Shown here: positions 1-17,636 of the stretch, piece by piece
How the letters are laid out: each line of letters opens with the position of its first letter
Numbering within the stretch: the stretch's first letter is position 1
IMG/VR virus record: IMGVR_UViG_3300036779_000023
Coordinates: 897 to 64,896 of that record
Source: a virus
Taxonomy: Duplodnaviria; Caudoviricetes
Length of the DNA: 64,000 nucleotides
Strand: one strand, 5' to 3'
Made by a program: the position numbers and the translations under genes
Notes under the pieces: model-generated
The model's database searches: none
Seen by the model: only the letters and a program-made list of their open reading frames with translations
Told to the model about the DNA's origin: nothing

Positions 1-1489
1 CGATGCCGAGCATCGAGCCCTGATCCGGCGTCAGATTGTACTTCTTCAGAAGCGGGTCATGCCGGGCCGCGAGCTGGTTGCGGTACCACTCGCTGATCGG
101 CGAATGCTCGGCGAAATACAGCCCTTCGCCGCGCACGCCCGAGCCCTCGCCGGTGCCGATCTTGGAGGTGTCCATCTGGGTGAAGGCGTGCGGCGAGCCC
201 TGATAGACGATGATCGGCGCCGGACTGTTGCGGTCGCGCATCGTCCACTCCGGCATCAGTCCGACCTTCTGGTCGGCATATTTGGTGTCGGCGCCGCTGG
301 CGCTGCGGTTGAAGTCGCCGTGCGGGCCGTAGTTGACCCAGCTGTTCTGGCCGCGCGTCTCGGTCGTCATCGCCGGTCGCGCCAGATCGGAGTACATCGC
401 CGCATGCGATCGCCACGCGTTGTCCTCGCCGGCAGCGCGGAAGCCGTAGCCCTCCTTCAGGTGCCCGAAGTAGTCGTGCACGATGCGGAACAGGTCGTTG
501 TTGAGCAGCGGCACGCCGCCCAGCGTGCGGCCCGAGGGCTGCATCATCGGATGCGTCGACATGTCGATGCCGCCCTGCCCGGCGGTGCCGAAACCCTGAT
601 CGGTCGGAAAGAAATGCAGCCGGTTGTTTTCGATCACGTCCTTGGCCGCCAGCCTCGGCGTCGCCGCGTAGGGGTCCTCGCCCGGCGCATTGGCCACCAG
701 ATTCAGCTCGGGATGGTTTCGGCGCAGGTAGTCGTACTGGTCGCGGGTCTCCTTGATCATCGCGTCGTAGGAGTTTTTCACCGCCGGATTATCCGGATCG
801 TGCGGCATCTCCTCATAGGCCTGCGCGATATTCTTGGCGTGCTCCGGATCGAGCGGATGATACTGATCCGGTGTCTGGTGGTAGCTCGGCGTCGGCCGAT
901 CCCGCATGTAGCCTTCCGCAATGTCCTTGATCTTCGCGATCGGGCCCGGAATGTAGAGATCGTTGCCTACCTTGAGCGGGTTGGTGGGGAGGCCGGGGAG
1001 GGGAGCGTACCGTCCAGCCGCCTTTTCTGCTGATGCCTGTGCCGGTCCCAGCCGCGCGTCTCCTCCGCCATCTCCTCCGGGCTCAGCGGCGGCTGGTTGA
1101 GCCATTCCGGCTTCTGCTGTTGCTGCACCGGCTGCTTGGGCTTGTCCTGTGCCATGGCGTTTTCCTGTCAGTTGATCGACCCAGCTGTCGAAGGCTTCGC
1201 GCGCGCCGCCTGTGGCCGGCTTGGGCACCTCGGTCGCGAGGCCGCCGCCGGAGAACGATAGCGCGACGTTCATGGCACGGTCGATGTCCCGCTTGGTCAT
1301 GCTGAGGCGGGGATCGCGCGCCCTGATCTCCACCTCGCCGCCGGGATCGCTGATCGCACCGACCGGCTGGTTCAGCTTCGACCAGTCGACACCAGCCGGC
1401 GGAGCCGGTGGCGGCGCAGAGCGGGTGGCCGCGCCTTGATCGGGCGACCAGTCTTCCTCCGGCGCGAGCGAGCCGAAACCGTTTGCCAT
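1..1489 (-). CDS. Virion-associated polyvalent protein, partial (runs off left edge): zincin-like HDxxGH domain then ADP-ribosyltransferase-like domain
   Basis: Absent from ORF track (no stop in window). Manual translation from ATG 1489 is open to base 1: MANGFGSLAP...NDLFRIVHDYFGHLKEGYGFRAAGEDNAW...ETRGQNSWVNYGP...IIVYQGSPHAFTQMDTSKIGTGEGSGVRGEGLYFAEH. Confidence 0.8.
   Translation of the reverse strand, partial: MANGFGSLAPEEDWSPDQGAATRSAPPPAPPAGVDWSKLNQPVGAISDPGGEVEIRARDPRLSMTKRDIDRAMNVALSFSGGGLATEVPKPATGGAREAFDSWVDQLTGKRHGTGQAQAAGAATAEAGMAQPAAAEPGGDGGGDARLGPAQASAEKAAGRYAPLPGLPTNPLKVGNDLYIPGPIAKIKDIAEGYMRDRPTPSYHQTPDQYHPLDPEHAKNIAQAYEEMPHDPDNPAVKNSYDAMIKETRDQYDYLRRNHPELNLVANAPGEDPYAATPRLAAKDVIENNRLHFFPTDQGFGTAGQGGIDMSTHPMMQPSGRTLGGVPLLNNDLFRIVHDYFGHLKEGYGFRAAGEDNAWRSHAAMYSDLARPAMTTETRGQNSWVNYGPHGDFNRSASGADTKYADQKVGLMPEWTMRDRNSPAPIIVYQGSPHAFTQMDTSKIGTGEGSGVRGEGLYFAEHSPISEWYRNQLAARHDPLLKKYNLTPDQGSMLGI
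967..1155 (-). CDS. Small 62-aa ORF nested out of frame inside the 1-1489 gene
   Basis: SD-like ACAGGAAAA just upstream of ATG; about 53 of 62 codons end in G/C by hand count, while the host frame over the same bases is A/T-ending. Confidence 0.55.
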   Translation of the reverse strand: MAQDKPKQPVQQQQKPEWLNQPPLSPEEMAEETRGWDRHRHQQKRRLDGTLPSPASPPTRSR

Positions 1490-1490
1490 C

Positions 1491-3251
1491 TCACTGCCTC
1501 TGATCTTGCGGCATCAGCGAGCCGAACGCCGCGCCTGCACCAACCGTCCCGGCCAGCAGACCGGCACCGGCCTTGCCCGAAAGGATGAGATCGCGCGCCT
1601 TCTCGGGCGAGATGCCGAGCCGGTTGGCCGCCGTCATGATCTGCTTCGACAGCAGTTCGAGCTTCGGCGCCCCGAGCGCGCTCTCGACGCCCGTCTGCGG
1701 CCCCAGCGCCGTCCACAGCCGCGCCTGCGCCGGTACGCTTTCGAGCCCGAGCGGCTCCGCCACCTGATGCTGCCACCATGGCTGCGTCGTCTGATACTCC
1801 GGCGTCGAGAACGAGCCTTGGACGTCGGTCGGGCCTTTGCGCACGTCGGTCAGCCCGACACCGCGCGACCAGTGCGCGTCACCCACCTGCCCTTGGGTCT
1901 GGAAACCGGTCTCCGGAACGCCCGAGGCGCCGACATAGAGCGGCACCTTCGGCGCGTTGCTCTGGATCGAGCCCGCCGCGAGATACTTCGCCATCGGGCC
2001 GCCTTGCGCCGTCATGTGATAAGGGTGACCGCCGATGTACATCATGTCCTCGGGGAACGCGGCGCTGCCACGCTGCTCCTCCGGCACACCGGCATAGCGC
2101 AGGAAGTCCTCGAAACGGCCTTGGCTGGCCAGCCAGTGCGCGGCGGTGCCGCGCTGGATTTCCGTCATCACGTCACTGCCCGGGGAGGCCATGCCGGTCA
2201 GCGTGTTGAAGCGGTTGTAGCGCGGGATCGCTTCAGTCGGGCCATGCAGCTGCGCCATGCGCTCATAGACCGGGTCCATGATGTACCACGCATCGGCACC
2301 GCGCAGTCCTTCGTGCTTGCCCGCCTCAGCGAGGATGTCCTGTAGCCGCTGGGTGTTCTGCGGCGTCATCACCTGCAGCGCGGCGGCCGAGCCACGCGCC
2401 CGGGGACCGCCCGGCGGCACCGCCGGCAGCGCATTGCCGCGTCGGTCCTGCGCCATCTCCCAGAGATCGCCCCGGGTGACGCCGAACAGCCGCTGCATCG
2501 CCGGGTCTTCCGGGCCCACCTGCGCCGCCGCCTGCGCCGCGATCTCGCGCGGGTTGGCATAGATGCCCGGGTACATCATGCGCCGGGGCTCGCCGACCGT
2601 CTGCACCCGGAGATTGGGCGGCGCATCGACACCGGCGCTGACGACACCGCTGACCCCGGCGGTAGGCGTGTACGACCGCGCAGAAGGGGTCTGGGCGGGG
2701 CTGGGAGCCTCGCTGGGAGGCGCTTCTGGCGGGGCAGTCTCTGGTGCCGCCGGGCGGGCCGCCGCAACCCGCGCCATCGTGGGCTTCGCGGCGGGGGTTT
2801 CTGGTTGCTCCGGAGGCAGCTCCGGCTTCACGGTCGGCTTCTTGGCCTTGATCACCTTGGCCATGCCGGCGCCGAGCGCGGTCTCGCCGGCCGCACCTTC
2901 GACCGGGCCGCCGATCACGTAGGAGTACAGGTCGGCCAATTTCGGCTTCACCATCGTGACGCCTTCCGGCGTCTTGGCGAACGGCAATACGCCCGGCCGC
3001 CGCACCACCGTCAGCGGCTCGCCGGTGTCCTCATAGACCGGCCGCCCCGTCTCATCGGTGGTGACGCCTGCCGGCAGCTGCCCGGTCTGCGTCCCCAATA
3101 GATCGGGCTCCATCATCCACATCCTGCGCGGCTTCGGCGGCTCGTATCTGTCGGTGCCGCCGACCGGAAGCCCGGTGCCGGGATCGTAGTAGCGGTTCAT
3201 CAGCTCGTCGTCGGCCGAGCTGTCGGGTGCGAGGCTGCCGAATCCTGCCAT
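1491..3251 (-). CDS. Virion-associated protein, 586 aa, with a C-terminal DNA-glycosylase-like (HhH-GPD/DUF7178-like) motif set
   Basis: Start MAGFGSLAP at 3251 (TGATG overlap with upstream gene); motifs DAWY...ASP...PKV...VGDAHWSR...AQARLW; position among tail/ejection genes. Confidence 0.65.
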   Translation of the reverse strand: MAGFGSLAPDSSADDELMNRYYDPGTGLPVGGTDRYEPPKPRRMWMMEPDLLGTQTGQLPAGVTTDETGRPVYEDTGEPLTVVRRPGVLPFAKTPEGVTMVKPKLADLYSYVIGGPVEGAAGETALGAGMAKVIKAKKPTVKPELPPEQPETPAAKPTMARVAAARPAAPETAPPEAPPSEAPSPAQTPSARSYTPTAGVSGVVSAGVDAPPNLRVQTVGEPRRMMYPGIYANPREIAAQAAAQVGPEDPAMQRLFGVTRGDLWEMAQDRRGNALPAVPPGGPRARGSAAALQVMTPQNTQRLQDILAEAGKHEGLRGADAWYIMDPVYERMAQLHGPTEAIPRYNRFNTLTGMASPGSDVMTEIQRGTAAHWLASQGRFEDFLRYAGVPEEQRGSAAFPEDMMYIGGHPYHMTAQGGPMAKYLAAGSIQSNAPKVPLYVGASGVPETGFQTQGQVGDAHWSRGVGLTDVRKGPTDVQGSFSTPEYQTTQPWWQHQVAEPLGLESVPAQARLWTALGPQTGVESALGAPKLELLSKQIMTAANRLGISPEKARDLILSGKAGAGLLAGTVGAGAAFGSLMPQDQRQ

Positions 3252-4978
3252 CAGCGATCTCCCCCCAGCTGGCTGTCGGTCTGGGCGCCGCGCGCATAGG
3301 TCCACGCCGTGCCCGCCACGATGCGCACCCGCACCCGCTGGTAGCGGCTCTCGATGTCGAGCGGCGATTGCCCTTGGTCGTCGATCGCCGATTCGGCGGT
3401 GTAGGTGACGGCGCCCTGCGGCGAGTTGCGATAGCCGATCGAGCAGTAGACCTGCGTCGCGTCGGTGATCGGCATCACCGCATTGGTGAAGATGAACTGC
3501 CCTTTGCCGTCCGCGTCGCCGGTCTCCATGATCGCCTCCAGCGTCGGGCCGTTGAAGAAGCCGAGCTGGTTGAGGCTGTTGAAGCTCGACAGCGATGTGG
3601 TCGACGATTTCGCGACGCTGTCGAGCGAGAACGTCAGCGCATCGAGCGAGCCGCCGATCGCGCCGCCGCCGGTGTAGGTGTGCACGAACACCGAGCCGAC
3701 CAGCTCGATATGCGTGGCGTCGATGATATTGGGCTTCCATGTGCCGTTGGCCTCGACCGTGCCCTGCACGCCCTGCACCACGATGAAGTTCTGCCCGGCG
3801 ATGTTGAAGTAGCTGTTCGAGGTCGCCGACAAGGTCAGCCGGATCAGCGGCGGGTTGGTCGGCGACACCACGGCGCCCGTCACCAAGAGCTGCTGCGGCG
3901 CAATCGCGTCCATGCCCTCCAGCGTCACGCCGGGCTTGGCCAGCGAGGCGATGTACTCGCCGGTCACGTTGAGCCGGGCCCATTTGTTGAGCACGAAATC
4001 ATAGATCAGGATGCGATCGAACAGCGCGGTCTGGCCCGAGATGCTCTTGTAGGCCCAGAACACCCGCGTCGAGGTCGGATCGGAGGCGCCGATGATCAGC
4101 TGCGGGTTGGCTGGGTCGACGTCAGCGAAGAAAGTCTTGTCGGTGATCTCCTTGCCGATGAACTGCGCATCGCTGCCTGCAACAACCATCTTGAAGCCGG
4201 CGGCCCCGCAGAACAGCACGCGATTGCCGATGTTGATCACCGAATACTTGCCGTACAGCGCCTCCTGCGTCGACATGCGATAGAACTGGAAGATCGCCGC
4301 CGAGCCCGGCATGTAGGTCATCGAGCGGACCGACTGCTCCTGAAAAATCATCCCGAAGGCGTCGCCGCCGGTGACCGTCTGGCAGGAGCCGCCGTCCGGG
4401 AAGTCCTGAAAATCCGACAGCCCGACGCCCGCCGTCCACTGCTCCGGCAGATCGAGATCGCTCCACTGCACCCGCCGCTCGTTCGAGGTCAGCGCGCTCA
4501 AGACCACGAAAAAGCCGATCACCGCGATCGCCGCCGCGAACGGCGGCGTGCCGCCGAGGTCGACGAACAGGCTCGCGCTCGACAGGATGAACTTCTGTGG
4601 CGTGGTGTTGGCCTGACAGGCAATGACGAGATCGTTGAACTGCCCGAACGACCAGTTGTCGGTCGAGGGAATCGTCGCATAGGCGTTGGTGACGCCACCT
4701 TTCGACGCCAAGACCCATGCGAACGTGGTGTTGTTGAGGACATAGAGATCGGTCGCGGTGCCGGCGAAGATCGTGATCGATCCATCGGTCTTGCGGCCGA
4801 AGAAATAGCCGCGACAGGCGGACGGCAGCGCCGAGGTGAAGGTCTGCAAGGATAGCGCCGGGCCATAGCCGTCGCTCTTCGGCAGCACATTGAAGATCGC
4901 CTGCGAGATCGCCTGCCCGATCGGCGCCAAGTCCGGCGAGTAGTTGGGGAATGGGATGAGATCGCCGACATCTGCCAT
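3251..4978 (-). CDS. Tail nozzle / packaged-DNA stabilisation protein (P22 gp10-like)
   Basis: 575 aa, beta-rich, directly after the adaptor; typical podovirus order. Confidence 0.7.
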   Translation of the reverse strand: MADVGDLIPFPNYSPDLAPIGQAISQAIFNVLPKSDGYGPALSLQTFTSALPSACRGYFFGRKTDGSITIFAGTATDLYVLNNTTFAWVLASKGGVTNAYATIPSTDNWSFGQFNDLVIACQANTTPQKFILSSASLFVDLGGTPPFAAAIAVIGFFVVLSALTSNERRVQWSDLDLPEQWTAGVGLSDFQDFPDGGSCQTVTGGDAFGMIFQEQSVRSMTYMPGSAAIFQFYRMSTQEALYGKYSVINIGNRVLFCGAAGFKMVVAGSDAQFIGKEITDKTFFADVDPANPQLIIGASDPTSTRVFWAYKSISGQTALFDRILIYDFVLNKWARLNVTGEYIASLAKPGVTLEGMDAIAPQQLLVTGAVVSPTNPPLIRLTLSATSNSYFNIAGQNFIVVQGVQGTVEANGTWKPNIIDATHIELVGSVFVHTYTGGGAIGGSLDALTFSLDSVAKSSTTSLSSFNSLNQLGFFNGPTLEAIMETGDADGKGQFIFTNAVMPITDATQVYCSIGYRNSPQGAVTYTAESAIDDQGQSPLDIESRYQRVRVRIVAGTAWTYARGAQTDSQLGGDR

Positions 4979-5713
4979 TTAGAACGCCATCGGTTTGATG
5001 CGCGAACGCGTCGAGGTCACCTTGTTGGTCTCCGCCTTGAGGTCGCGCCACGCCAGATAGGTCTCGCCCGGCCGCCCGTTGTTGCCGTCAGGCTCCGGCG
5101 ACATCGCCATCGCCATCGCCATGTTGCGCGTGACATGGGTCGCGATCTCATACTTGGCCCGGCAGCGGATCAGCTTCTCGCCCTGCGCCGGCTGCATCCA
5201 CACATTGCTCTGGTCGATGTCGCTGGCGGGGCCGGCGAGCTGCAGATGGGCGCCGATATAGATCACATAGTTGGTCACCGGCACCGGATAGAGAATCACC
5301 GAATTGCCTTCGTAGGCCCAGCTGGTCGGCAGGCCGAACTGCGTGAACAGCTGGATGTTCAGATGCTGCCGCTCGGGCTCGACTTGCGTCAGCTTCATCA
5401 GCGTGTTGCCGATCTGGATGTTGAGGTAGTCGACGAAGTACATCGACGACAGGATCGGGCTGTCGGCCGAGGTGTAGACCGATTGCAGCCCGTTGGTGAT
5501 GAAGGTCGGCGGATTAGATGGCTGGATTTCGTTGAAGCGGAAGCGCTGCTTCTGGTAGACCGCGATCGCGGTAGCGATGGCGTTGCGGATCGCCTCGCTA
5601 TTCGGCGCGGCTTGCGTCGCCGAGCCGGGCAGGCCGGCCAGATCGAACCGTGCGCCCAGCTCCGCAGCGATGCGGAAGATCATCGACTGCAAGTCGGTTC
5701 CGGTGAAGGCCAT
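4979..5713 (-). CDS. Head-tail adaptor protein
   Basis: 244 aa; IRNAIATAI...RFRFNE, G.PTSWAYEGNSVILYPVP, LIRCRAK pattern recalled from podovirus adaptors; synteny. Confidence 0.7.
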   Translation of the reverse strand: MAFTGTDLQSMIFRIAAELGARFDLAGLPGSATQAAPNSEAIRNAIATAIAVYQKQRFRFNEIQPSNPPTFITNGLQSVYTSADSPILSSMYFVDYLNIQIGNTLMKLTQVEPERQHLNIQLFTQFGLPTSWAYEGNSVILYPVPVTNYVIYIGAHLQLAGPASDIDQSNVWMQPAQGEKLIRCRAKYEIATHVTRNMAMAMAMSPEPDGNNGRPGETYLAWRDLKAETNKVTSTRSRIKPMAF

Positions 5714-5727
5714 AGCACATCACGTCC

Positions 5728-6228
5728 TCATGCAATCTGGCAGTACCACCGCCCGATCGAGACCGAGTAGCAGCTCGCGACCTTGTTCGACGGCAGCGCC
5801 AATGCCGCGCCGGCGCCCAGCGCCGAACCGCCCGAGACGAACACATCGCTGCTCGCAAACGGCCAGATGTTCAGCGAGTTGGAAGTGTGGTTGATCACGA
5901 TCATATTGAGCGAGGCGTCAAGATTGGTCGGCGGTCCCAGAGCTGTGACGGACGGCATCTTCACGCCATCGCCGATGGTCGCGACCGTCGTCACCTGCGA
6001 GACGCCTGCGGAGAGCTGGTAGGACGTCAGGATGGTGCCGGATGGTGTCGCCGTGATGGCCTGCTCGACGCTCGATGCCGAGATGCCGGTCTGGATGATT
6101 TCGTTGGCGCCCTCACTGTTGCGCCCGTGGATCACCCATGCCAGCGCCGCTTGGATCGACAGCATGGTTGCGATGCCGATGCCGAAGGCCGCACCGCGCA
6201 GGAAAGACGATGTCAGCCGCTTGCGCAT
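5728..6228 (-). CDS. Structural-module protein with signal-peptide-like N-terminus, paralog 2
   Basis: Basic-hydrophobic-AxA N-terminus; shares TATPSGT..SYQL.AG...VTTVATIGD.VK.PS and NLDASLN with neighbour. Confidence 0.75.
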   Translation of the reverse strand: MRKRLTSSFLRGAAFGIGIATMLSIQAALAWVIHGRNSEGANEIIQTGISASSVEQAITATPSGTILTSYQLSAGVSQVTTVATIGDGVKMPSVTALGPPTNLDASLNMIVINHTSNSLNIWPFASSDVFVSGGSALGAGAALALPSNKVASCYSVSIGRWYCQIA

Positions 6229-6232
6229 CGCT

Positions 6233-6721
6233 TTACCCTACCACGCAGTACCAGCGCGCCTGTGCGGTCGAGGCCCAGCAGATCGCCGTCTTGTTCGCCG
6301 CGACCGCCATGACCGCGCCGGCCGCGCCTGCGGCACCATTGCCGGTGATGGCGTCAGTCGTCAAAAATGGCCAGACGTTCATCGAGTTGCCGGTGGTGTT
6401 GGCGATCACGACATTGAGGGAGGCGTCGAGATTCGACGGCGAGAACAGCGTCTGGATCGACGGCAGCTTCACGCTGTCGCCGATGGTCGCCACCGTGGTC
6501 ACGGAGGTGAAGCCGGCCGTGAGCTGGTAAGAGTTGGCCTGCGTGCCCGAAGGCGTCGCCGTCACGCTGAGATCGGTTGAGAGCGCGAGCAGTCCGGCCT
6601 GCAGGATGTTGCGGTTGTCGGTCGAGTTGCGGCCAATCACGCTGAGCGCCAGCGCCGATGACACCAGCGCCGCCAGCCCGAAGATGGCGCCCATCGCAGC
6701 CGCGTTGAGGAAGCGCTTCAT
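6233..6721 (-). CDS. Structural-module protein with signal-peptide-like N-terminus, paralog 1
   Basis: MKRFLNAAAMGAIFGLAALVSSALA leader; clear paralog of 5728-6228; both end in RWYC. Confidence 0.75.
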   Translation of the reverse strand: MKRFLNAAAMGAIFGLAALVSSALALSVIGRNSTDNRNILQAGLLALSTDLSVTATPSGTQANSYQLTAGFTSVTTVATIGDSVKLPSIQTLFSPSNLDASLNVVIANTTGNSMNVWPFLTTDAITGNGAAGAAGAVMAVAANKTAICWASTAQARWYCVVG

Positions 6722-6734
6722 GATCTCACCCTAC

Positions 6735-6763
6735 AAAAAGAGGCGGGCGGGGTCGGCCGCCCG
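6735..6763 (-). terminator. Intrinsic terminator after capsid/decoration genes
   Basis: Minus strand GGGCGG-ccgacc-CCGCCC followed by gcctcTTTTT. Confidence 0.7.
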
Positions 6764-6781
6764 GCCCAAGGCTGGGAGAAA

Positions 6782-7195
6782 CTACGACTGCCATCCGCCC
6801 TCGAACTCGATCACGACGATCGCTTGGCCTGCACTCGGTGCGCCAGTCGCGCTGTAGACCACCTGCGGCAGCACATCGCCGGCCGCCGTCAGCGAGCGGC
6901 CGAGGCCGCGCGTCACCGGCGTCACTGCCGCCGCCGTCCACGTCACATCGGCAGCGGCAACGATGTTGTTGTAGGTGGTCGGGTTGGTGCCGACCGTGAG
7001 CGTGGGCCCGGTGCCGTTGAACGCCGTCACCACCTCGACCAGAACAAGCGTGATGAAGGCGCCTTGCGGCAGATAGTTCGCCATCGGGGACGCGACGCCG
7101 GAGGCATTGTCGTTCCAGTTGACGGTCTTCTTCAGCGTGTTCGAGACTTGGCGCGGGTCCTGCCGTGCAGCCGTGCCGAGAACGCCAGTTGCCAT
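6782..7195 (-). CDS. Capsid decoration/cement protein
   Basis: 137 aa, beta-rich (VEVVTAFNG...LTVGT), directly after the major capsid gene. Confidence 0.65.
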   Translation of the reverse strand: MATGVLGTAARQDPRQVSNTLKKTVNWNDNASGVASPMANYLPQGAFITLVLVEVVTAFNGTGPTLTVGTNPTTYNNIVAAADVTWTAAAVTPVTRGLGRSLTAAGDVLPQVVYSATGAPSAGQAIVVIEFEGGWQS

Positions 7196-7205
7196 GTGAT
7201 CCTCC

Positions 7206-8318: not shown

Positions 8319-8556
8319 AGGGCACCCTTGCGGTCGCGCCCGGCCCCAGATGGGGCCGTGGCACAGTTGCGTGCGATATGCGTGGGTGCAGAACGATTAG
8401 CGCTCGTCTGCGAGCGATAGGTCTCGCCGGATAACGGGCGGCGGTCTCGGAGGGTTTAACGGTGGCCCACAACAGAGGGGAAATTTAAGCGCCGATCCCC
8501 GGGGCGTGGAGGTGTTTTTACCTCACCCGGGCGGCCGAATCAAGCCACCCGGGAAC

Positions 8557-8769
8557 TCAGGTCAGATGTTGCAGCTGGCGCAGCAGCGGGACCAGCAGGT
8601 AAAAGATGATGATCAGCGCCAGCACCGCGATCAGCAGAACCCTGACGACTTGCGCGACCTGCGGCGGCAGCGGGATCAGCGGCAGCAACTGCTCGATTAC
8701 CCACCAGATGAGGCCAAGCACCAAGAGCGCAATGATCAGCTCAATGAGCAGGGTGATCATGCCGGTCAT
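8557..8769 (-). CDS. Small two-TM membrane protein (Thivi_2564-like)
   Basis: 70 aa; two hydrophobic helices separated by LPLIPLPPQV. Confidence 0.7.
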   Translation of the reverse strand: MTGMITLLIELIIALLVLGLIWWVIEQLLPLIPLPPQVAQVVRVLLIAVLALIIIFYLLVPLLRQLQHLT

Positions 8770-8779
8770 GCCCGTTCTC

Positions 8780-9178
8780 CTATTCGCAGATGTCGGTGCC
8801 GACCACGAGGTCTTTACCCGGCTCGCCGCCCATCAGCCTGCACAGCACGGCCGGGTCGACGCGATCGACCAGACGAGCGAAATCCTCGTCGCTCATGTCG
8901 AGCAGCTTCTGCACCGTGAGGCGCCCGGGCTCCATGACCGGGGGCGGCACATTGCGCGCCCCCCAGATACGCGCCACATCTTGCTCGACCGGAATCGGCG
9001 CCGGCACATTGCGCATCCGCCACGTCGCTTGCGGCGGACCCGGCGGCACGCAAGCCGGCAGCGCCGACCCGACCACCGCCGGCAGCTCAACCTGTTTGGG
9101 CTTGGGCGCGCGCGGCTGCCACCAGTCGTCGCCAAGCAGCCGCTGGTTCAGATCGCTAAAATCGAAGACGATCGACAT
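8780..9178 (-). CDS. Hypothetical protein carrying a copy of the scaffold C-terminal motif
   Basis: LTVQKLLDMSDEDF...LMG aligns ungapped with the scaffold C-terminus. Confidence 0.6.
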   Translation of the reverse strand: MSIVFDFSDLNQRLLGDDWWQPRAPKPKQVELPAVVGSALPACVPPGPPQATWRMRNVPAPIPVEQDVARIWGARNVPPPVMEPGRLTVQKLLDMSDEDFARLVDRVDPAVLCRLMGGEPGKDLVVGTDICE

Positions 9179-9202
9179 GATGCTCTCCGTTCGTCACCGG
9201 AC

Positions 9203-10501
9203 CTAGCCGCGTCCCGGAAACTCGCGTCCCATCAGCGCCTGTAGGCGCTGCGTCGGCAGATTGTCAATGTACATGCCGAACTCCTGATCGTCCATTCGGA
9301 GCAGCGTCTCGATCGAGAGCGGCTCGGCCGGCGGGGCGCCGCCGCCATCGGACAGCGATCGCGAGGCCGCAGCACCAGCCTGCTCCGCCTGAATCTGCGC
9401 GACCGCGTTGCGCGCAGCAGCCGGCGCCGCTGGGCTACGGGCCTGTGGCACAGCCGGCCGCCGGGCTCCGCCAGCTGGTGCCGGTGCTGGCGGGGGCGCG
9501 GCGGCTTGGGGCGGCCTCCATCCACGGCCTTTGGCGAGCCGCATGATCGCCTTCGCCGGGCTTTTGCCGGTCGACAGCGCGTTGTTGACCACCCATTTTT
9601 CCTCCGCATTGAAATCAGCGATCATCTTGTTGATTTCCTGCGGCGTGAACTGCTCGTTCGGGTCGGTCGGGTCCTTGTCGAACAGCGAGATGCCCAGCTC
9701 CACCAGCCGGCTGTTCTTCAAAAATTGATAGGCACCCTCGCCACCGAAGAAATGCATGCCTTCCTCGGTCTGCGCGTACATCTGGGTGTCGCGGGTGAAG
9801 TCCCGCAGTAGCGCCTGATCCTGCAATTGATCCTGCGTCGCCTCCTGCTGCTGCATCGAGGCATCGGCCATGAACACCTGCCGACGCTGCAGCTGGTTGA
9901 TCGCGGCCGGCAAATCCACCGCCGGGTCGATGGTGTCCTCCAGCATCGGATTTTGCGCGATCTGCTGCTGGCGCTGGTACTCCGCCTGCTGCGGCGTCAA
10001 GGGCTGCGATGGCATCGGCGCGGTCAGCGCATCGTTGAGGATCGCCAGCCGCTCGGAGAGCTTGGCGTGATTGATCCGCTCCTGCTCCGCCTGCGTCCGC
10101 AGCGCCTCGGCCTGCTGCCGCTCCCGGTTGAGGAGCCGCTGGTGCTTGCCGAACGAGATGGTGCGCTGCTCCTTGCCGGTGCGCGGATCGCGGGTGACCT
10201 GATCCGGCTCGTCATCCTCCTCGGGCGCCGGCGGCGGCTGACGTAGCTGTGGGCCCGGCGGAGCGTCCAGCACAGGCCTTTGCACGCCGGGCGGGCTGTC
10301 GGCAGCCGGCGCCGGCTCGCCCTCGTCTGGCGCCTCCGCAAGGCCGGCATCGGCACCCTTCATCGCGTCGAAGGCGGCGCGATCCTCGGCATTGAGACCA
10401 AGCTCATCCAGCTCTTCGGTATCGGGCGGCGTACCTTCTTCAACGTCCCCAATCGTCTCGGGCTGGAGCATCGGCTGCTGCGGTGCTGCTTTCGGTGCCA
10501 T
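9203..10501 (-). CDS. Capsid scaffolding protein
   Basis: 432 aa; acidic/Pro-rich N-terminus, coiled coil, located between portal and capsid. Confidence 0.75.
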   Translation of the reverse strand: MAPKAAPQQPMLQPETIGDVEEGTPPDTEELDELGLNAEDRAAFDAMKGADAGLAEAPDEGEPAPAADSPPGVQRPVLDAPPGPQLRQPPPAPEEDDEPDQVTRDPRTGKEQRTISFGKHQRLLNRERQQAEALRTQAEQERINHAKLSERLAILNDALTAPMPSQPLTPQQAEYQRQQQIAQNPMLEDTIDPAVDLPAAINQLQRRQVFMADASMQQQEATQDQLQDQALLRDFTRDTQMYAQTEEGMHFFGGEGAYQFLKNSRLVELGISLFDKDPTDPNEQFTPQEINKMIADFNAEEKWVVNNALSTGKSPAKAIMRLAKGRGWRPPQAAAPPPAPAPAGGARRPAVPQARSPAAPAAARNAVAQIQAEQAGAAASRSLSDGGGAPPAEPLSIETLLRMDDQEFGMYIDNLPTQRLQALMGREFPGRG

Positions 10502-10835
10502 GGTCGGCTCCTTGTTTCTCTCGTTTGATGAAATCCGCGATCATGTCCCATGTCCGCGCGTCGAGCGGTCCGTGAACCGAGATGTTGCCGTGCGTGACCT
10601 TGAGCTTGCCCATCGGCCAGTCCTCGCTCTCGAACGGGCCCATCAGCTCCATGCGAAAGCCGCCGAAATGCGCAATGACGAGGTCTTTGACCTTGCCCTG
10701 ATCGCGATTGCCTCTGACGGCGGGGATTGGAATCGCCTTGTCCACCTTGACGTCGTCCCATTTGACGACACCGAGGAGCAGCTGGTGGAAATACTCTTGC
10801 GCCTGCCGCAGCAGCGCCATTCGCGTCGAGATCAT
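10440..10835 (-). CDS. Hypothetical protein
   Basis: ATGA overlap with portal stop; fills the portal-scaffold gap. Confidence 0.6.
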   Translation of the reverse strand: MISTRMALLRQAQEYFHQLLLGVVKWDDVKVDKAIPIPAVRGNRDQGKVKDLVIAHFGGFRMELMGPFESEDWPMGKLKVTHGNISVHGPLDARTWDMIADFIKREKQGADHGTESSTAAADAPARDDWGR

Positions 10836-13369
10836 GGGGTTCTTGGGTTCATTGCCGACTGCATCCCCGCCATGGCAGTCAGTCTCGAAATGTCACTGGT
10901 TCGCCTGTTGTGCTCGTCCTGTTGCTGCAGCTGCCGCGACTTCAGCTGCCGGTCGGCCGCGCCGCTCGCGGCCTGCTGCGACATCTGCTGCTGATTGTTG
11001 GCGATGCCGGCCGCCGCCTGCATGGCGTCGATCTGCTGCTGCCGTGCCGCCAGATGGGCGTGGATGCGATCGGTCATCGCCTTGTGGGTGTCGGTCAGCG
11101 CCTTGTGACGGTCGATCACGACCCCGGCCGTATCGAGCGCGGCCTGATGCCGGGTCGAGGCGCGGCTGTGCGCGGCGTCGAGCATGTCGCTGGTGTGCTG
11201 CGCGACGCCCTGATCGGTCTGCTGCTGGGTCTGGTGGGCGAGTGCGATGGTGTGCGCGGCCTTGGCCTTGTTCAGCTCGGCTTTCGCGGCCTCGCTCATC
11301 GCCTGAATGTGGTGGGTGAAGCCCTCGATGTCGTTCTTGGCCAAGAGGTTCTGCGCCATCGCCAGATCGTAGGTCGCAGTCGAGTTGGTGGAGCCGGCCT
11401 TGGCGTTCTGCATCTCCGCCGTCGACTGGTCCTTGTTGATTTCCGCGACCAGTTTCGAGATCGCCAGCTGCTTCATGGTCTCCTGCCACTGCTGCTGGCC
11501 CGGATCGTCCTGCTGCTTCTTCAGCAGCGCCTTCTTCATGGCATCGACGAACGGCGTCGGCAGCGGCGAATATTCCAGCGCCAGCATCAGCAGCTCCGGG
11601 TTCGCCGACAGCTGATCCTTGAACGCGGCCAGCAGCGGCTGCATCACCGCCCAGTTGGCTTCCTTCTGGTTCGGCGAGGTCGGTGCGTCATCCACCACGA
11701 CGTCATAGGTGCCGGTGGTGCGGTCCTTGGTCACCGCGACGACTTGCGCGTATTCCGGGCCCGCCACCCGGATCATGGTGCCGTCCGGAACGCGGGTCTG
11801 GATGAAGTAGAGCCGCTTGCGGCCGACGATCTTCAAAAAACCGCGCAGCGAATCGAAGATGGTCGCGAGCACCGTCATGCCGGCCTGCTTGCGCATGTGC
11901 TCGATGATGCCGGGCTGGTTCTGGTCCTGCTGGCCGAGCAGCTCCAGATTGATGCCGGTGACCGCCGTGATCGCCTGCACCGCGTAGGTCAAGAGATTGA
12001 CATAGGCCGAGGCATCGCCCTGCCCGGGCTTCGGCATGATCTTCGGCTTCGGACCGGAAAGTGACCCGGGCGCCGCCCATGTGATACCCTCGGGCATCGC
12101 ATAGGTCTCTTCCGCCTGCCGCTGATCGTCGAACGCGTCGGCTTCCGCAAGGATGCCGCCCTTCGCGGTAGCGTTCATAATCTGCATGATCTGCGACATG
12201 AACTTGTTGGCCCACATCTGCGGATCACGCATCACCCGCACCAGCCCGTACCACTGCCGCTTCTTGGCATCGTACGATCCGGTGACCACCGCCCACGAGA
12301 ACTGATCGCCGCACGGCGCCGGAGCCACCTGTTCGAGCAGCCCGTGGTTGCCGAGGAAGGCCTGATAGTAGCGCCAGCGGTGGGCTTTCCGCGCATGCAA
12401 GAGCACGTTGGCGCCGAGCCTGCTGCCGACCGCCTTAAGCCGCGCCTGCACCTTCACATAATCATCCTCGCTGAGGTCTTGCACGGTGTTGGTGGCAACG
12501 TCGGCGACCCGATAATACGGCTCGCGCTCCTTCCACTGGATCACCACCACCGTCACCTCGTCGCGGTCGTCGGTGTCTTCCCACAGGTTGGTGTTTTCCT
12601 CGCGGATGCGCTTTTCCTCGATCGATTTCAGCGTCGCCTCGTCGAGATAGTTCTGGTTGGCCCACACCGCGTCGATGTCCATGCGGCTCTTGCCGGGAAA
12701 CAGCTGCATCGCGTCGGATAACGGCATCCGCCGCAGCCTGCCCTTGCGCCGCGCATCGCGCAGGTTCTTCTTGCGCGCGGTGCGGTCCCACACGAACTCG
12801 CGGCAATCGATCTGCTCCTCGATGTAAGAGCCCTCGGCATCGTTTTCGTAGGAATAGCGGCACTCCGCCACGCCGACGCCGGTGCCCAGCGTCTGCTGGA
12901 ACGCTTCCGACTGCTCGTCCTCGGCGTCGCAGCCGTCGCCCATCCACTTCGAGGTCGCGGTGAGCAGCTCGTTCTTGGCGGTGTCGGCATTGTTGCGCGG
13001 CAGGAAGTTGATCTCGTGCCGGCCGTTGATCTCCATGCCGGCGATCGCCTTCAAGATGGTCTCGATCCGGTTGAAGACGATGTGCGGGCGGCCTTGGTCG
13101 TCGAGTAGCTGCTTGTCCTCGTCGGAGAGCTGGTCGCCCGCGATGAAGCCGAGATCGTCGGTGGCCTGCTTGCGCCATTTGACCGAATATTCGAGGTCGG
13201 CGAGCACATTGGCCTTGAGGATGCGGAACTGCTGGGCCGGGGTCTTTCGCGACAGCGGAATCGCGGCGCGGCGATCGTTCTCGCCGTAGGTCAATCCGTC
13301 GCTGTCAGCTCCGGCCGTCACATCTTTATAGTCGACGTCATCCAGAACTGCCGCCGCGTTCCGCGCCAT
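10832..13369 (-). CDS. Portal protein (P22-like) with long Q/H/A-rich C-terminal helical extension
   Basis: 845 aa; DDLGFIAGDQ, RPHIVFNRI, YGLVRVMRDPQMWANK, TGINLELLG motifs; follows terL. Confidence 0.9.
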   Translation of the reverse strand: MARNAAAVLDDVDYKDVTAGADSDGLTYGENDRRAAIPLSRKTPAQQFRILKANVLADLEYSVKWRKQATDDLGFIAGDQLSDEDKQLLDDQGRPHIVFNRIETILKAIAGMEINGRHEINFLPRNNADTAKNELLTATSKWMGDGCDAEDEQSEAFQQTLGTGVGVAECRYSYENDAEGSYIEEQIDCREFVWDRTARKKNLRDARRKGRLRRMPLSDAMQLFPGKSRMDIDAVWANQNYLDEATLKSIEEKRIREENTNLWEDTDDRDEVTVVVIQWKEREPYYRVADVATNTVQDLSEDDYVKVQARLKAVGSRLGANVLLHARKAHRWRYYQAFLGNHGLLEQVAPAPCGDQFSWAVVTGSYDAKKRQWYGLVRVMRDPQMWANKFMSQIMQIMNATAKGGILAEADAFDDQRQAEETYAMPEGITWAAPGSLSGPKPKIMPKPGQGDASAYVNLLTYAVQAITAVTGINLELLGQQDQNQPGIIEHMRKQAGMTVLATIFDSLRGFLKIVGRKRLYFIQTRVPDGTMIRVAGPEYAQVVAVTKDRTTGTYDVVVDDAPTSPNQKEANWAVMQPLLAAFKDQLSANPELLMLALEYSPLPTPFVDAMKKALLKKQQDDPGQQQWQETMKQLAISKLVAEINKDQSTAEMQNAKAGSTNSTATYDLAMAQNLLAKNDIEGFTHHIQAMSEAAKAELNKAKAAHTIALAHQTQQQTDQGVAQHTSDMLDAAHSRASTRHQAALDTAGVVIDRHKALTDTHKAMTDRIHAHLAARQQQIDAMQAAAGIANNQQQMSQQAASGAADRQLKSRQLQQQDEHNRRTSDISRLTAMAGMQSAMNPRTP

Positions 13370-13370
13370 C

Positions 13371-13841
13371 TCACTTCCTCAGCATCTTCTCCACCTTCTT
13401 GAGCCGCTGATCGAAATCGTCGAGATACTCGATCATCGACTTGTCCGGCGCCTCGTAGTCGCCGTACATCTGCTGCTTCAGCTCGCGCACCAGCGCCTTG
13501 ATCACTTCAAAGCGCCGCTCGGTCTCGTCGGCGAACTCGGCCTCGGGGTCGGGGTCGATCGGTTCGACATGGGTGTAGCAGTGACCGGGCTGCGCTTCGC
13601 TGTAGGGCTTGACCCGCTGCTCCCAGATGCGGTCCTCCGCCTCGTACTCGACGATCAGATCGAGCGAGCCGTCATCCTCATGCTGCTTCAGCACGATGGC
13701 GGGAAACTCGGTGCGCCCTTGCCGCATCGAGCCCATGCGGCCATGGTAAACCACTCTGTTGCCGACCGGGACGCGCCTGATCTTGACGATTGCGGGATCG
13801 TTCTCGGCCATGCGTCGCGTCGATTCCATCAGATGGCTCAT
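13371..13841 (-). CDS. Hypothetical protein
   Basis: 156 aa ORF in operon with ATGA overlap. Confidence 0.7.
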   Translation of the reverse strand: MSHLMESTRRMAENDPAIVKIRRVPVGNRVVYHGRMGSMRQGRTEFPAIVLKQHEDDGSLDLIVEYEAEDRIWEQRVKPYSEAQPGHCYTHVEPIDPDPEAEFADETERRFEVIKALVRELKQQMYGDYEAPDKSMIEYLDDFDQRLKKVEKMLRK

Positions 13842-14134
13842 GGCGGTTCGTCCTTTTTGGGCTCGTACGTCAGCGGAATCGCCTTCACGAAAGCCTTGGC
13901 GGTCTCAGCAGTCAGCTGACTGATGTCAAAGCTGGCCGGCATCTCCCGCGACTTCAGATTATGGACCTTGCCATCGGGACCATTAACACAAAACGAAAGC
14001 ACCTGCCATTCGGTGTTGTCTGGCTTGTGCACGTAGTCGAGATTCGCCGTCGCCACCGTCCAGCCCGGCGGCAGCAGCTCAGCGAAGACTTGTCGGACCA
14101 GACGGATTCCTGCAAGGTTGTTCACGGCGCTCAT
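13838..14134 (-). CDS. Hypothetical protein
   Basis: 98 aa ORF in operon. Confidence 0.6.
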   Translation of the reverse strand: MSAVNNLAGIRLVRQVFAELLPPGWTVATANLDYVHKPDNTEWQVLSFCVNGPDGKVHNLKSREMPASFDISQLTAETAKAFVKAIPLTYEPKKDEPP

Positions 14135-14483
14135 CCTCCATCTTCGGCATGAAGAACTGGCGCATCTCCGCGCCAGCGTAGCGCTCCTCCCACATCGCGA
14201 TGGCCTGCTCGCTGGTTTTGTCCGCCGCTTCCAGCTTGTCGCCGTTCAGGCGCACATCGACTACCCAAACGATCGGCTCGGCCGGAATGCGCGACTCGTT
14301 CGACAGCGGCGCCAGCATCAGACGCTCCTTGAGCGCAATCCGCCAGCGCGAGCCCGGATACATCTGGCGCAGATTGAAATGCGCGTCCGACAGCTGGCGG
14401 GCATGCACCGCCTCGAACAGATGGATGGCAAGCGCACGGTCGATGGATGGCTTCACAGCCCGCTGCTTTTTTATTGCGCCCAT
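14079..14483 (-). CDS. Hypothetical protein
   Basis: Start MGAIKK at 14483 overlapping the terL end; the longer upstream extension is an off-frame shadow of terL. Confidence 0.55.
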   Translation of the reverse strand: MGAIKKQRAVKPSIDRALAIHLFEAVHARQLSDAHFNLRQMYPGSRWRIALKERLMLAPLSNESRIPAEPIVWVVDVRLNGDKLEAADKTSEQAIAMWEERYAGAEMRQFFMPKMEDERREQPCRNPSGPTSLR

Positions 14484-16027
14484 TGTGATCCCTTGACCTT
14501 TTTGCCCTTGCGGCTGCCGTCCGCCAGCGGGATTCCCTCGGGCTTCAATCCAACGGCGCCGGTCATGCCGGCATCGGCCGCGTTGCTGGCCCAGTTGTGC
14601 AGCGGCACCGAGGTCCACTGCCCGAGCTGCTTGTTCCATGTCTTGCGATAGTTGTCGAGACACTCGATCATCCGCGCGCAGTGCTCGGCGTCGATCCATG
14701 TCAGCGACAGCATCTTGCGCAAGGCCTCGATCGCGTCCTCCTTGTCGAGCACGCGCGGCACCACCTCGAACTCGATGCCGAGATCGCTCGCGATGTCCTT
14801 GCGGGTGCGCGCGTTGTCTTCCCAGCTGCGGTGCCCGACGTCGTGCGGGCCATAGTGCTTGCCGAACGTGAAGCGCCGCTTTTCGCCGATCTCGTGCACC
14901 TTGGCGCAATAATGCTGCACGCCCTCGCCCGCGTTCTCGTAGTAGTCGATGATGCGGTGCCTTGTGCCATCGGTCTGGTGAAACCAGATCGCATTTTGAT
15001 TGTTCTTGGTCTCCAGCCCGATGTCCCAGAACGTGTTGACGAGATAGTTCGGATCATGCGGGATCGGGTGCCCGATGCGGTGCTCCTCGCGCGCCTTGGT
15101 CAGCTCGCGCTTGAACCACGTGCCCTCCAGCGAGTTGAAGAAGGTCTCGTCCATCGCGCTCGGGAACTCCGAGTGCATATCGTCGCGGCCGAGCGTCTGA
15201 TACTTCAGCACGTACCAAGCTTTTTGCCCGGGCGTCAGAACGACGCCGTGCTTGGCCTTGAGCGTGTCGAAATAGTCGTGCATCTCGCTAGAGATGATCG
15301 CGAGGTTGGGCTGGATGGTGTACTTCGGGTCCATCCACCACGCGAAGAAATGCAGCTTGAAGTCCAACTGCGACAGCGGCCGGCCGCTCCGCATCTTGGC
15401 GTCGGCCGTCTGCACCATGTCATAGAACGACCCGCTGGTGCCGTGGGCGGTCGATTCGAGCTTGACCTTCTGGCCCGGCGCGATCGTGTTCAAGGCGCCG
15501 GTCATGATCTCCCGGGCGATGTCGGGCTTGTCGGTGGCGATCTTGCCGAACTCTGAAATATGCAGATACTGCAGGGTGCCGCCCCGATGCGATGTCCCGA
15601 CATAGCAGGTCGAGCCGTTGGTCCATTTCAGCTCCTCCTCGTTGTCCTTGACGAGCCCGATGGTCTCGCGCACCGCGCGCGGGGTGCCGAGATAGGCGGT
15701 CCTGATCTTCTGCAGCTTGAGCTTGGCGTCGTCGAGCGTGTAGTCGATGATGCCGGCGGTGAAGTTTTTCCGCCACAGGCAGTGGTCGCAGATGTCGATC
15801 GCGATCTCGGTGGAGAAGCCGAGCTGGCGGGCTTTCACGATCAGATCGAGCAGCCATTGCGCATCGGCGTATCTCTGCTGCGCGAGCCGGCGCCGATACG
15901 GCACGATCTTGCCGGTCTCATCCAGCACCTGATACAGCGTGTTCATGCGCACGCTGCGGTCACTGAACTGCTTGGCGAGGCCTTTGTAGAGCGGCGTTGC
16001 CTTCAGGATCGAGACCGGCTCGTTCAC
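14471..16027 (-). CDS. terL: Terminase large subunit
   Basis: Walker A region VKARQLGFST, Walker B YLHISEFG, ESTAHG, nuclease WDIG and NAADA; GTG start overlapping upstream TGA. Confidence 0.92.
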   Translation of the reverse strand: MNEPVSILKATPLYKGLAKQFSDRSVRMNTLYQVLDETGKIVPYRRRLAQQRYADAQWLLDLIVKARQLGFSTEIAIDICDHCLWRKNFTAGIIDYTLDDAKLKLQKIRTAYLGTPRAVRETIGLVKDNEEELKWTNGSTCYVGTSHRGGTLQYLHISEFGKIATDKPDIAREIMTGALNTIAPGQKVKLESTAHGTSGSFYDMVQTADAKMRSGRPLSQLDFKLHFFAWWMDPKYTIQPNLAIISSEMHDYFDTLKAKHGVVLTPGQKAWYVLKYQTLGRDDMHSEFPSAMDETFFNSLEGTWFKRELTKAREEHRIGHPIPHDPNYLVNTFWDIGLETKNNQNAIWFHQTDGTRHRIIDYYENAGEGVQHYCAKVHEIGEKRRFTFGKHYGPHDVGHRSWEDNARTRKDIASDLGIEFEVVPRVLDKEDAIEALRKMLSLTWIDAEHCARMIECLDNYRKTWNKQLGQWTSVPLHNWASNAADAGMTGAVGLKPEGIPLADGSRKGKKVKGSQWAQ

Positions 16028-16389
16028 GGCAGGTCCGCCGCATCCACGAACGCAAACGATGAGCCGGCCGACCATTCAAGGTAGTCGAAGCCGCTCCCCA
16101 TCTTGCGTGAGCCTTCGCCAGCTATCCGCGCGCGCTTCGCCTCCGGCCCGAGCGGCTGCAGCTCCCAGCGGATCGCGGCGCCCTCCGGCACCTCGACGCC
16201 GATGATGGTCGCATTGTCGGGTCCGGGTCCGGGAAAGCTTAAGATGACGGGCTCGACGCCGTTGGAGACGCCGATCACCGACCACAGCGGGGGCTCCTCG
16301 TGCATCCAGATGTAATCGGCGGCGAACTTGCGCTGGTTCGACAGCTGATAGCCGAACACGCGCACCTTGAACGCGGCTTCCGAAGGCAT
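16024..16389 (-). CDS. Hypothetical protein
   Basis: 121 aa ORF, GTGA overlap with terL. Confidence 0.65.
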   Translation of the reverse strand: MPSEAAFKVRVFGYQLSNQRKFAADYIWMHEEPPLWSVIGVSNGVEPVILSFPGPGPDNATIIGVEVPEGAAIRWELQPLGPEAKRARIAGEGSRKMGSGFDYLEWSAGSSFAFVDAADLP

Positions 16390-16393
16390 GGCT

Positions 16394-16609
16394 TTAGTCC
16401 ATCGCTAGCGATCCGAACTTGCGATGGGGCTTCCGACCTCCCCTCACGGCTTTGCCCGCCTTCACCCGCGCCGGCAGGTGATGATAGGCGCCCTTGCCAT
16501 GCGGACCTTTCTCGATGAACTCGGCGGCGGCTTGCCCGGCCTGACTGTGCGGGCTTTGCGCGCGCTTCCAGTAGGCCCACCGCGCCTGTGCTTTCGAGAC
16601 CAGCGGCAT
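16394..16609 (-). CDS. Small basic protein ending in KFGSLAMD
   Basis: 71 aa, K/R/H-rich; SD AGGAG upstream. Confidence 0.7.
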   Translation of the reverse strand: MPLVSKAQARWAYWKRAQSPHSQAGQAAAEFIEKGPHGKGAYHHLPARVKAGKAVRGGRKPHRKFGSLAMD

Positions 16610-16701
16610 GACTGTCTCCTGTTAGGCTGGCGCGGTGAGCGGAAAGACGCCTTTTACACCTTGCTGGGGCTATAAAAGCACTCACCGCGCCAAGCTTTGC
16701 T

Positions 16702-17343
16702 TTACTTGCTCGGCACCGGATGGGGCACGTTCGGCACCCCGACCACGACCCATCCCTTGTCTTCACCGGTCCAGATCGCATGCCACTCGATCAAGGATTC
16801 CTGATCCGGCGGAGTATCCGGCGGGATCACGATCGGATGGGTCGGGAAGCCCGGAATCCCGACTTCCGGCGGTGGCAGCACGATTGGATGCTCGGGCTTG
16901 GCGTCGACCGGCGGCAGCGGGATCACGATCGGGTGCGCGGGATGACCCGGGCTCGGCCAGATCACCACCGGCGGCCCGCCGCCCGGAGGCTGCGGAACGA
17001 CGACGATCGGCGGCGTCGGGAACGGCTCATTGCCGCCGCCCCAGATGCCGGGCGGGATCACGATCGGGTGGGTCGGCACGCCGGGCGCGAGGCCGTCCGG
17101 AGGAATGACGATCGGATGCTCCGGGTAGATCGGAATGTAGATCGGATGGGTCGGCACGCCCGGGGCGATCGCGTCCGGCGGAATGACAATCGGGTGGGTC
17201 GGCACCCCCGGCGGATTGTAGATCGGCGGCATCACGCCAACCGGCGGATAATAGATCGGCGGCATCACGACCGGACCGTCGCCACCGCCACCGCCATCGG
17301 CTTCTTTGAGCAGCGTAATCAGCGCGAGATACTGTTTTGCCAT
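16702..17343 (-). CDS. Proline-rich repeat protein (PxHPIxxP repeats)
   Basis: SD GGGAG before ATG 17343; seven P[TEA]HPIx[IL]P units plus related PPI units; Trp-rich non-repeat C-terminus. Confidence 0.75.
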   Translation of the reverse strand: MAKQYLALITLLKEADGGGGGDGPVVMPPIYYPPVGVMPPIYNPPGVPTHPIVIPPDAIAPGVPTHPIYIPIYPEHPIVIPPDGLAPGVPTHPIVIPPGIWGGGNEPFPTPPIVVVPQPPGGGPPVVIWPSPGHPAHPIVIPLPPVDAKPEHPIVLPPPEVGIPGFPTHPIVIPPDTPPDQESLIEWHAIWTGEDKGWVVVGVPNVPHPVPSK

Positions 17344-17354
17344 GCGATTCTCCC

Positions 17355-17636
17355 TCAATCTTCAGGCGGCATCACGCCCGGCTGCATCGCAGCGATATTT
17401 TGCGTGGGACCAATGCCGGGAATTGATGCTGCCATTCCCGGTTGGGGAAGCGGTGCCACCGGCTTGGCAAGAGACCCAAAGCCGGCGGGTGGCTTCATCG
17501 GCTTCGGTTGGGTCGGCATTTTGAGGGAGGGTGCGGCGGCTGCCGCGACGATGCGTTTGTGGTGGGCGGGCGTGATGTGGCCCATGTTGAGAAGATGCTT
17601 TGCGCTGGCGAGTGTCAGGTTTCGCATTCTCGACAT
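17355..17636 (-). CDS. Small basic/Pro-rich protein containing AGFGSLA
   Basis: 93 aa; first gene after the 17640-17770 intergenic region. Confidence 0.65.
   Translation of the reverse strand: MSRMRNLTLASAKHLLNMGHITPAHHKRIVAAAAAPSLKMPTQPKPMKPPAGFGSLAKPVAPLPQPGMAASIPGIGPTQNIAAMQPGVMPPED

Follow-up and report, generated by a model that had tools for sequence, protein, structure and literature searches.

To our knowledge, the way in which short-tailed phages without a head protease select their accessory proteins is poorly understood, and among polyvalent anti-defence proteins we know of a mapped signal for DarB of phage P1 alone, without a consensus. In phage T4, the capsid-targeting sequence of IPIII is N-terminal, binds the scaffolding core, is removed by the prohead protease, and loads foreign proteins (Mullaney and Black, as cited in PMC9024508). 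The N-terminal 30 residues of P1 DarB suffice to load a reporter; the required signal is longer than 9 residues and does not exceed 30, and the Dar proteins of P1 have yielded no consensus (PMC9024508). Targeting peptides of family-1 encapsulins carry a conserved GSL and bind the HK97-fold shell (PMC7925596), and the ejection proteins gp7, gp16 and gp20 of phage P22 co-assemble with the scaffold during procapsid assembly, with no shared peptide signal named for them (PMC12005531). For phage-type polyvalent proteins, Iyer et al. 2017 predicted packaging from gene context and from MuF/portal fusions, with no terminal address peptide named in the passages searched (PMC5512222). Here a short peptide tag with the core Phe-Gly-Ser-Leu (FGSL) is described from an uncultured soil-type short-tailed phage. 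It was found in a stretch of 64,000 nucleotides (IMG/VR record IMGVR_UViG_3300036779_000023, positions 897 to 64,896; hereafter the window), which is the genome of 64,896 bp minus its first 896 bases. By analogy with the systems above, and with moderate confidence, the tag is taken to be a cargo-loading or docking peptide that puts accessory proteins into the phage head.

A six-frame scan of both the window and the whole genome returned exactly five copies of FGSL, those listed in the initial annotation, all in late genes of the minus strand (Table 1). They belong to four proteins of the virion gene block, namely two large ones, referred to as A and B, and two small ones of 71 and 93 residues; all but one of the five copies stand 3-7 residues from a terminus. 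The copies had been described as sitting on unrelated late proteins that share nothing else, and indeed no other significant similarity was detected among the four carriers, and the early and replication proteins of the genome are free of the tag. Synonymous codons vary among the copies (serine as TCG, AGC or TCT; leucine as CTC, CTG, CTA or CTT), so that conservation operates at the peptide level, as had been proposed. The start codons of A and B are both ATG behind a Shine-Dalgarno-like sequence and both coupled to the upstream gene, the ATG of B overlapping the preceding stop as TGATG. A full-text literature search for FGSL with phage found no paper.

How many copies might arise by chance was estimated in two ways. 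From composition, the gene set of 18,838 amino acids is expected to hold 0.20 copies of FGSL and 0.03 of FGSL[AM], in line with the earlier estimate of far fewer than one, and five copies of FGSL were reached in none of 5000 within-protein shuffles. FGSL is the top terminal 4-mer of the real proteome; any 4-mer at all reached at least four terminal windows in 55 of the 5000 shuffles. The bare 4-mer count loses its significance once corrected over all 4-mers, and the carriers are rich in low-complexity linkers, both of which would suit a coincidence, that is, a functionless compositional by-product of Gly/Ala/Pro-rich linkers. As the count alone is insufficient, the case rests on terminal position and on conservation in orthologues.

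For the latter, a portal query fetched 36 related viral loci. All orthologues of the 71-residue protein in these loci end in two basic residues, Phe-Gly-[Ser/Thr/Gln]-[Leu/Ile] and 2-6 further residues, and with database homologues added Phe65 and Gly66 are invariant in the 23 aligned sequences, the preceding basic linker having indels. In the family of the 93-residue protein (six orthologues), F53 and G54 stand as invariant islands in a Pro-rich linker that otherwise varies. FG[STA][LI] occurs 18 times in the 36 closest homologues of B (20,271 residues in all): seven copies are at residue 4 and ten, of the form FG[SA]L, lie 5-10 residues before the C-terminus, which makes 17 terminal copies against a single internal one. 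The initial annotation had held that a motif not conserved in orthologues would undo its proposal; it is conserved, and by the alignments it is shown to be under purifying selection. Coincidence is thereby already contradicted, and the invariance of Phe-Gly inside variable linkers, the terminal position of 17 of the 18 matches in relatives of B, the recurrence of the tag on non-homologous proteins of sister phages and the synonymous codon differences all speak against it, such that it is hardly credible at all.

The tag had been suggested to be portable, and this was borne out. At the position following the same tail gene, sister phages (handles L001/L002/L022, G002, G003, L007 and L017) encode other large proteins of the polyvalent type, which are not homologous and yet begin with the tag. 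Among these, G002 encodes a 1012-residue zincin-bearing protein tagged at both ends, and G003 and L007 encode two N-terminally tagged large proteins each, which are consecutive in G003. L007 possesses two further small proteins with a C-terminal tag, one of them Cys-rich; homologues of the latter in L001-3, L006 and L014 stop right before the basic linker and the tag, so that, as far as these sequences tell, the protein of L007 is a case of natural tag gain or loss. Such a gain on a homologous protein fits the loading of new cargo by acquisition of a tag. Altogether, the tag was found on at least eight unrelated protein families. Contigs of a Pseudolabrys metagenome-assembled genome (MAG) and of a Candidatus Cybelea MAG, both more distant relatives found via the capsid protein, encode small C-terminally tagged proteins at the same gene position. 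A prophage of Bradyrhizobium genosp. A BDV5028, reached in the same way, has a protein of 1164 residues that ends in a Gly-rich stretch and FGSL; being the only such case, it calls for caution. In the sister clade, complete genomes that lack A, B and the 71- and 93-residue proteins showed no terminal tags. As a separate observation, a lytic-transglycosylase-type virion protein in a locus whose portal is 38% identical (L030:12913-14274) contains Pro-Ala-Phe-Gly-Ser-Leu-Ala-Pro in an Ala-rich linker.

Both small carriers had been called basic, which their residue counts confirm (Table 1). No match in Pfam or PHROGs was obtained for them, nor for the 121- and 218-residue proteins encoded nearby. 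A profile of the family of the 71-residue protein, with its start Met-Pro-x-Val-Ser-Lys-Ala-Gln-x-Arg-Trp, gathered 56 cluster representatives (P0143-P0197), and family members sit just upstream of a conserved beta-rich protein of 121 residues and the large terminase. The strict tag ends 12 of 55 representatives, often as Pro-Phe-Gly-Ser-Leu-Ala-Pro, the remainder having other or plain basic tails. Scanning the alignment of this family over genome contigs gave no confirmed locus.

Table 1. Carriers, tag copies and candidate readers in the window (window coordinates unless stated; aa, amino acids).
Feature	Position	Strand	Remarks
Protein A, putative polyvalent-type cargo, 739 aa	1..1489	-	first 496 codons in window; full gene at genome 167-2385
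N-terminal tag of A, FGSLA	1463..1477 (FGSL 1466-1477)	-	residues 5-9, after Met-Ala-Asn-Gly; six-frame scan
Protein B, 586 aa	1491..3251	-	1-201 mostly disordered; 205-565 folded domain; 567-586 disordered tail
C-terminal tag of B, FGSLM	1512..1526 (FGSL 1515-1526)	-	FGSL 7 residues before stop, preceded by Gly/Ala-rich stretch
N-terminal tag of B, FGSLA	3228..3242 (FGSL 3231-3242)	-	residues 4-8; six-frame scan; same position in B relatives
Major capsid protein, PF13252	7206..8318	-	family match; candidate tag reader
Putative scaffolding protein, 432 aa	9203..10501	-	between portal and capsid genes; candidate tag reader
P22-type portal protein	10832..13369	-	candidate tag reader
Large terminase	14471..16075	-	late gene
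71-aa strongly basic protein	16394..16609	-	family starting MP-x-VS-x-AQ; 14 K+R vs 3 D+E
C-terminal tag of 71-aa protein, FGSLA	16403..16417 (FGSL 16406-16417)	-	FGSL 3 residues before stop
93-aa basic Pro-rich protein	17355..17636	-	conserved N-terminal domain; 9 K+R vs 2 D+E
Internal tag of 93-aa protein, FGSLA	17466..17480 (FGSL 17469-17480)	-	in variable Pro-rich linker

The two large carriers had been regarded as enzyme-bearing, and this may be so. In A, the segment 163-419 is shared with proteins whose annotation reads large polyvalent protein or lysin, and a match to ART-PolyVal is weak (E 0.031; 15.5 bits against a curated cut-off of 31.2). The AlphaFold model of B has a mean predicted local distance difference test (pLDDT) score of 73.7; the domain 205-565 is confident, and the tails with both tags stay below a pLDDT of 50, so that both tags of B are predicted to sit on flexible, disordered tails. 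A Foldseek search of the model against the Protein Data Bank gave no match at E <= 0.001. Structural comparison by VIA-align, on the other hand, returned a consistent set of HhH-GPD DNA glycosylases, headed by Tm1821 (Z 11.2, root-mean-square deviation 3.4 Å over 185 residues), which is suggestive of an HhH-GPD DNA-glycosylase-like fold in the modelled domain, with a score below the caution line for helical folds. This domain has more than 425 database relatives, often within larger polyvalent proteins, and belongs to no Pfam family; relatives were found fused to PF18760, PF19846 and PF18838. Encoded among virion genes, A and B may be multidomain or single-module relatives of the phage-type polyvalent proteins of Iyer et al. 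2017 (PMC5512222). Their genes are flanked by a tail gene on one side and, on the other, by homologues of the proteins annotated for injection in Rhizobium phage RHph_Y1_10, and it is in such a gene position that polyvalent proteins, predicted to be packaged, are expected (PMC5512222). The C-terminal Gly/Ala-rich tail of A (genome 167-250) aligns with the tail of B (45% over 22 residues) and has Ala-Met-Gln-Gly-Gly at the site of Ala-Phe-Gly-Ser-Leu in B; this may be a decayed tag.

The vicinity of the A and B genes to ejection-protein genes invites a different interpretation, in which the tag would serve ejection and not loading. Much like a secretion signal, it would hold a free end of the protein at the barrel or channel of the portal, or at the ejection proteins, for the cargo to be threaded out in order with the DNA. 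That the tags occupy free termini, and now and then both termini of a protein, would be understandable on these grounds, as would the Gly/Ala-rich hydrophobic stretch preceding the C-terminal tags of large proteins; furthermore, in P22 the portal barrel is surrounded by a cluster of ejection proteins (PMC12005531). The same tag is, however, present on small basic proteins encoded beside the terminase gene, and the copy in the 93-residue protein is internal. A role in ejection instead of loading is regarded as unlikely, though both roles may hold.

The predicted glycosylase-like fold of B is likewise compatible with a motif directed at the host, which after injection would dock the carriers on one host hub, for instance in replication, repair or at the membrane, and thereby bring the glycosylase-like and ART-like enzymes and the basic proteins to where they act. 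Motifs that bind such hubs, the beta-clamp motif for instance, are typically found at extreme termini, as are most copies of the tag. The clamp-binding consensus, Gln-Leu-[Ser/Asp]-Leu-Phe, is not matched, however: in more than 60 instances of the tag there is no Gln at the first position, and Phe comes first, not last. Moreover, the early and replication proteins of the genome lack the tag. In other phage lineages, the homologous cargo domains carry different conserved tails; tails this different would be unexpected for a conserved bacterial hub, and their lineage specificity argues for a reader specific to the phage lineage rather than for a universal host hub. On balance, docking on a host hub appears improbable.

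Such other tails were seen in two settings. In the clade L067-L146, two to three cargo-like proteins are encoded between terminase and portal (e.g. L067:8492-14826 and L085:6135-11590), and their tails, each conserved per protein, read VFGALPVRK, THAHHL-x-IEERPL or ITERKL, and D-x-M-x-[LY]-E-L..K. An unrelated, complete phage of 46 kb (G001, L043-L045), with no match to the capsid or portal protein, has adjacent homologues of A and B at about 42.8-44.7 kb with four copies of a variant tag, Met-Gly-Gly/Ala-Leu-Ala...Asp-Gln-Tyr, in N-terminal, internal and C-terminal positions. Judged from these sequences, phage polyvalent proteins may quite generally bear C-terminal tails specific to their clade.

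In the loading interpretation, which is the favoured one, FG[ST][LI], extended to Pro/Gly-Phe-Gly-Ser-Leu-Ala-Pro, would be a short linear motif for docking, exposed by accessory cargo (polyvalent enzyme-bearing proteins and small basic ones) on flexible segments at either terminus or in a linker. Its binding partner would be a conserved part of the head under assembly, and the tagged proteins would be trapped in the procapsid, later to exit with the DNA. A disordered terminal or linker position, two to four invariant residues, occurrence on at least eight families, restriction to the late block and the presence, at times, at both ends of one protein together point to a motif read by one common partner. 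We infer that the carriers are located in the virion, that they bind a head component and that they are not cleaved. In its P22-like portal, and in that no S78 or S49 protease was found, the phage resembles P22, which has no protease and whose internal proteins are recruited at procapsid assembly in a scaffold-dependent manner; by this analogy the likeliest reader would be the scaffold or core, followed by the capsid lumen and then by the portal. Unlike in P22, the tagged proteins here are accessory cargo, and the core ejection proteins carry no tag. If loading were confirmed, the tag would offer a minimal handle for bringing foreign proteins into phage heads, and cargo could be predicted from sequence alone: the consensus has only 4-7 residues, functions at either terminus in this reading, and extends across an uncultured soil-type phage clade and some MAG contigs and prophages, possibly including that of Bradyrhizobium.

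Several points weigh against this interpretation. The C-terminal tail of A is without the motif, the tag of the 93-residue protein is internal, and the virion location of both small proteins is argued solely from gene position beside the terminase. A terminal position is common among short linear motifs of many kinds, host-hub-binding ones included. Finally, presence or absence of the tag across clades follows the cargo itself and is thus uninformative on the reader; picking the reader by this pattern was therefore rejected. The 218-residue protein, encoded between the genes of the two small tagged proteins, was also considered as reader and set aside, as G002 has retained both of these genes and shows no match to the protein between them. 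A complex prediction for capsid, scaffold and 71-residue protein, made with alignments and without controls, scored 0.00 and carries no weight either way.

The initial annotation had drawn a parallel to the capsid-targeting sequence of T4, and this holds in part. In both cases a short terminal peptide is common to otherwise unrelated proteins, which in T4 travel inside the head, and Met-x(1-3)-Phe-Gly-Ser/Thr-Leu opens A, B and the corresponding proteins of sister phages, as expected of a T4-type leader. Unlike the T4 sequence, which is N-terminal only, the FGSL tag is N-terminal, C-terminal or internal, its sequence is unrelated, and the phage is a podophage with a portal of the P22 type. A processing site, at which a phage or host protease would trim the carriers during maturation, had to be considered in this context, as T4 and many large phages use cargo leaders as prohead-protease sites (PMC9024508). 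Searches for S78 and S49 prohead proteases found neither in this genome, rated 99% complete by CheckV, which makes T4-like cleavage unlikely; a scan of the late proteins gave no protease match. The match of the capsid protein to its family begins at residue 6, with no propeptide, and a cut at the motif would remove only 3-8 residues. A processing site is accordingly given very little credence.

The cargo also invites comparison with P1 DarB, a polyvalent, injected protein of the anti-defence type that is directed into the head of P1 by its N-terminal residues. The difference lies in the signal, as the present tag amounts to a consensus of 4-7 residues on at least eight families and is found at C-termini too.

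Encapsulin targeting peptides resemble the tag in sequence, over 3-4 residues only: a hydrophobic residue followed by Gly-Ser-Leu on a flexible cargo tail, with G-S/T-L conserved. Their reader is the luminal face of the HK97-fold shell, and they are portable to foreign cargo. It is conceivable on this analogy that the hydrophobic-Gly-Ser-Leu element of a flexible tail attaches to the HK97-fold capsid protein at its luminal face, with neither scaffold nor proteolysis involved, but this encapsulin-style variant of loading is considered doubtful. The encapsulin peptide is C-terminal and followed by Lys or Arg, whereas Ala-Pro and acidic residues follow the FGSL tag, and encapsulin systems have neither portal nor terminase, in contrast to the portal, terminase, tail and ejection genes of the present genome. 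Should the variant be true, any protein gaining 5-7 residues at either end would be packaged and injected, a finding that would tie the targeting peptides of encapsulins to a mechanism of phages and provide a minimal tag for phage protein delivery.

As to the genome as a whole, the late genes lie on the minus strand, and tail and structural proteins, the portal, the capsid protein and the large terminase were identified; the putative scaffolding protein is without a family match. By capsid protein, the closest cultured relative is RHph_Y1_10 (48% identity), and the capsid proteins of the Bcep22/DC1 group reach about 30%. Megablast of the first 20 kb gave a single match of 212 bp, and tblastn of B against GenBank phages gave none, so that there is no cultured near relative. 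The nearest capsid homologues in bacterial assemblies (L147-L199) come from a Pseudolabrys MAG (65%), a bin labelled Nitrospirae (62%) and an alphaproteobacterial MAG (57%), and those in prophages of cultured Hyphomicrobiales (Methylobacterium, Brucella, Bradyrhizobium) do not exceed 49%. Together with a G+C content of 64%, these capsid relatives hint at an alphaproteobacterial soil host. The first and last 292 bases of the genome (genome 1-292 and window 63709-64000) are 98.6% identical, with four mismatches, and represent either a terminal repeat or the assembly overlap of a circularly permuted genome; because of these repeated ends, a small gene starting Met-Ala-Arg-Lys-Leu-Gln is duplicated.

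A few sequences elsewhere in the genome bear some likeness to the tag. Residues 356-361 of the capsid protein, in its C-terminal strand and 9-12 residues from the end, read Asp-Tyr/Phe-Gly-Thr-Ile/Val-Val; this Phe/Tyr-Gly strand, whose core resembles the tag, is kept in nearly all of the approximately 50 homologues fetched, with a few variants, and might be a case of strand mimicry. A homologue of an ejection protein (878 residues; 56256-58892, minus strand) ends in Ile-Gly-Gln-Ala-Leu-Arg-Leu-Pro-Asp-Gln-Ser-Ser-Gln, loosely like the tail of B, and its orthologue in G003 has FGAL 15 residues from the end. In a protein with an S74 domain (61591-63189, minus strand) and in its orthologues, the last residues read Met-Gly-Met-Met/Leu or Val-Gly-Ala-Leu, followed by Ala-Ala. 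The tails of the 878-residue and S74-domain proteins may be degenerate or ancestral tags.

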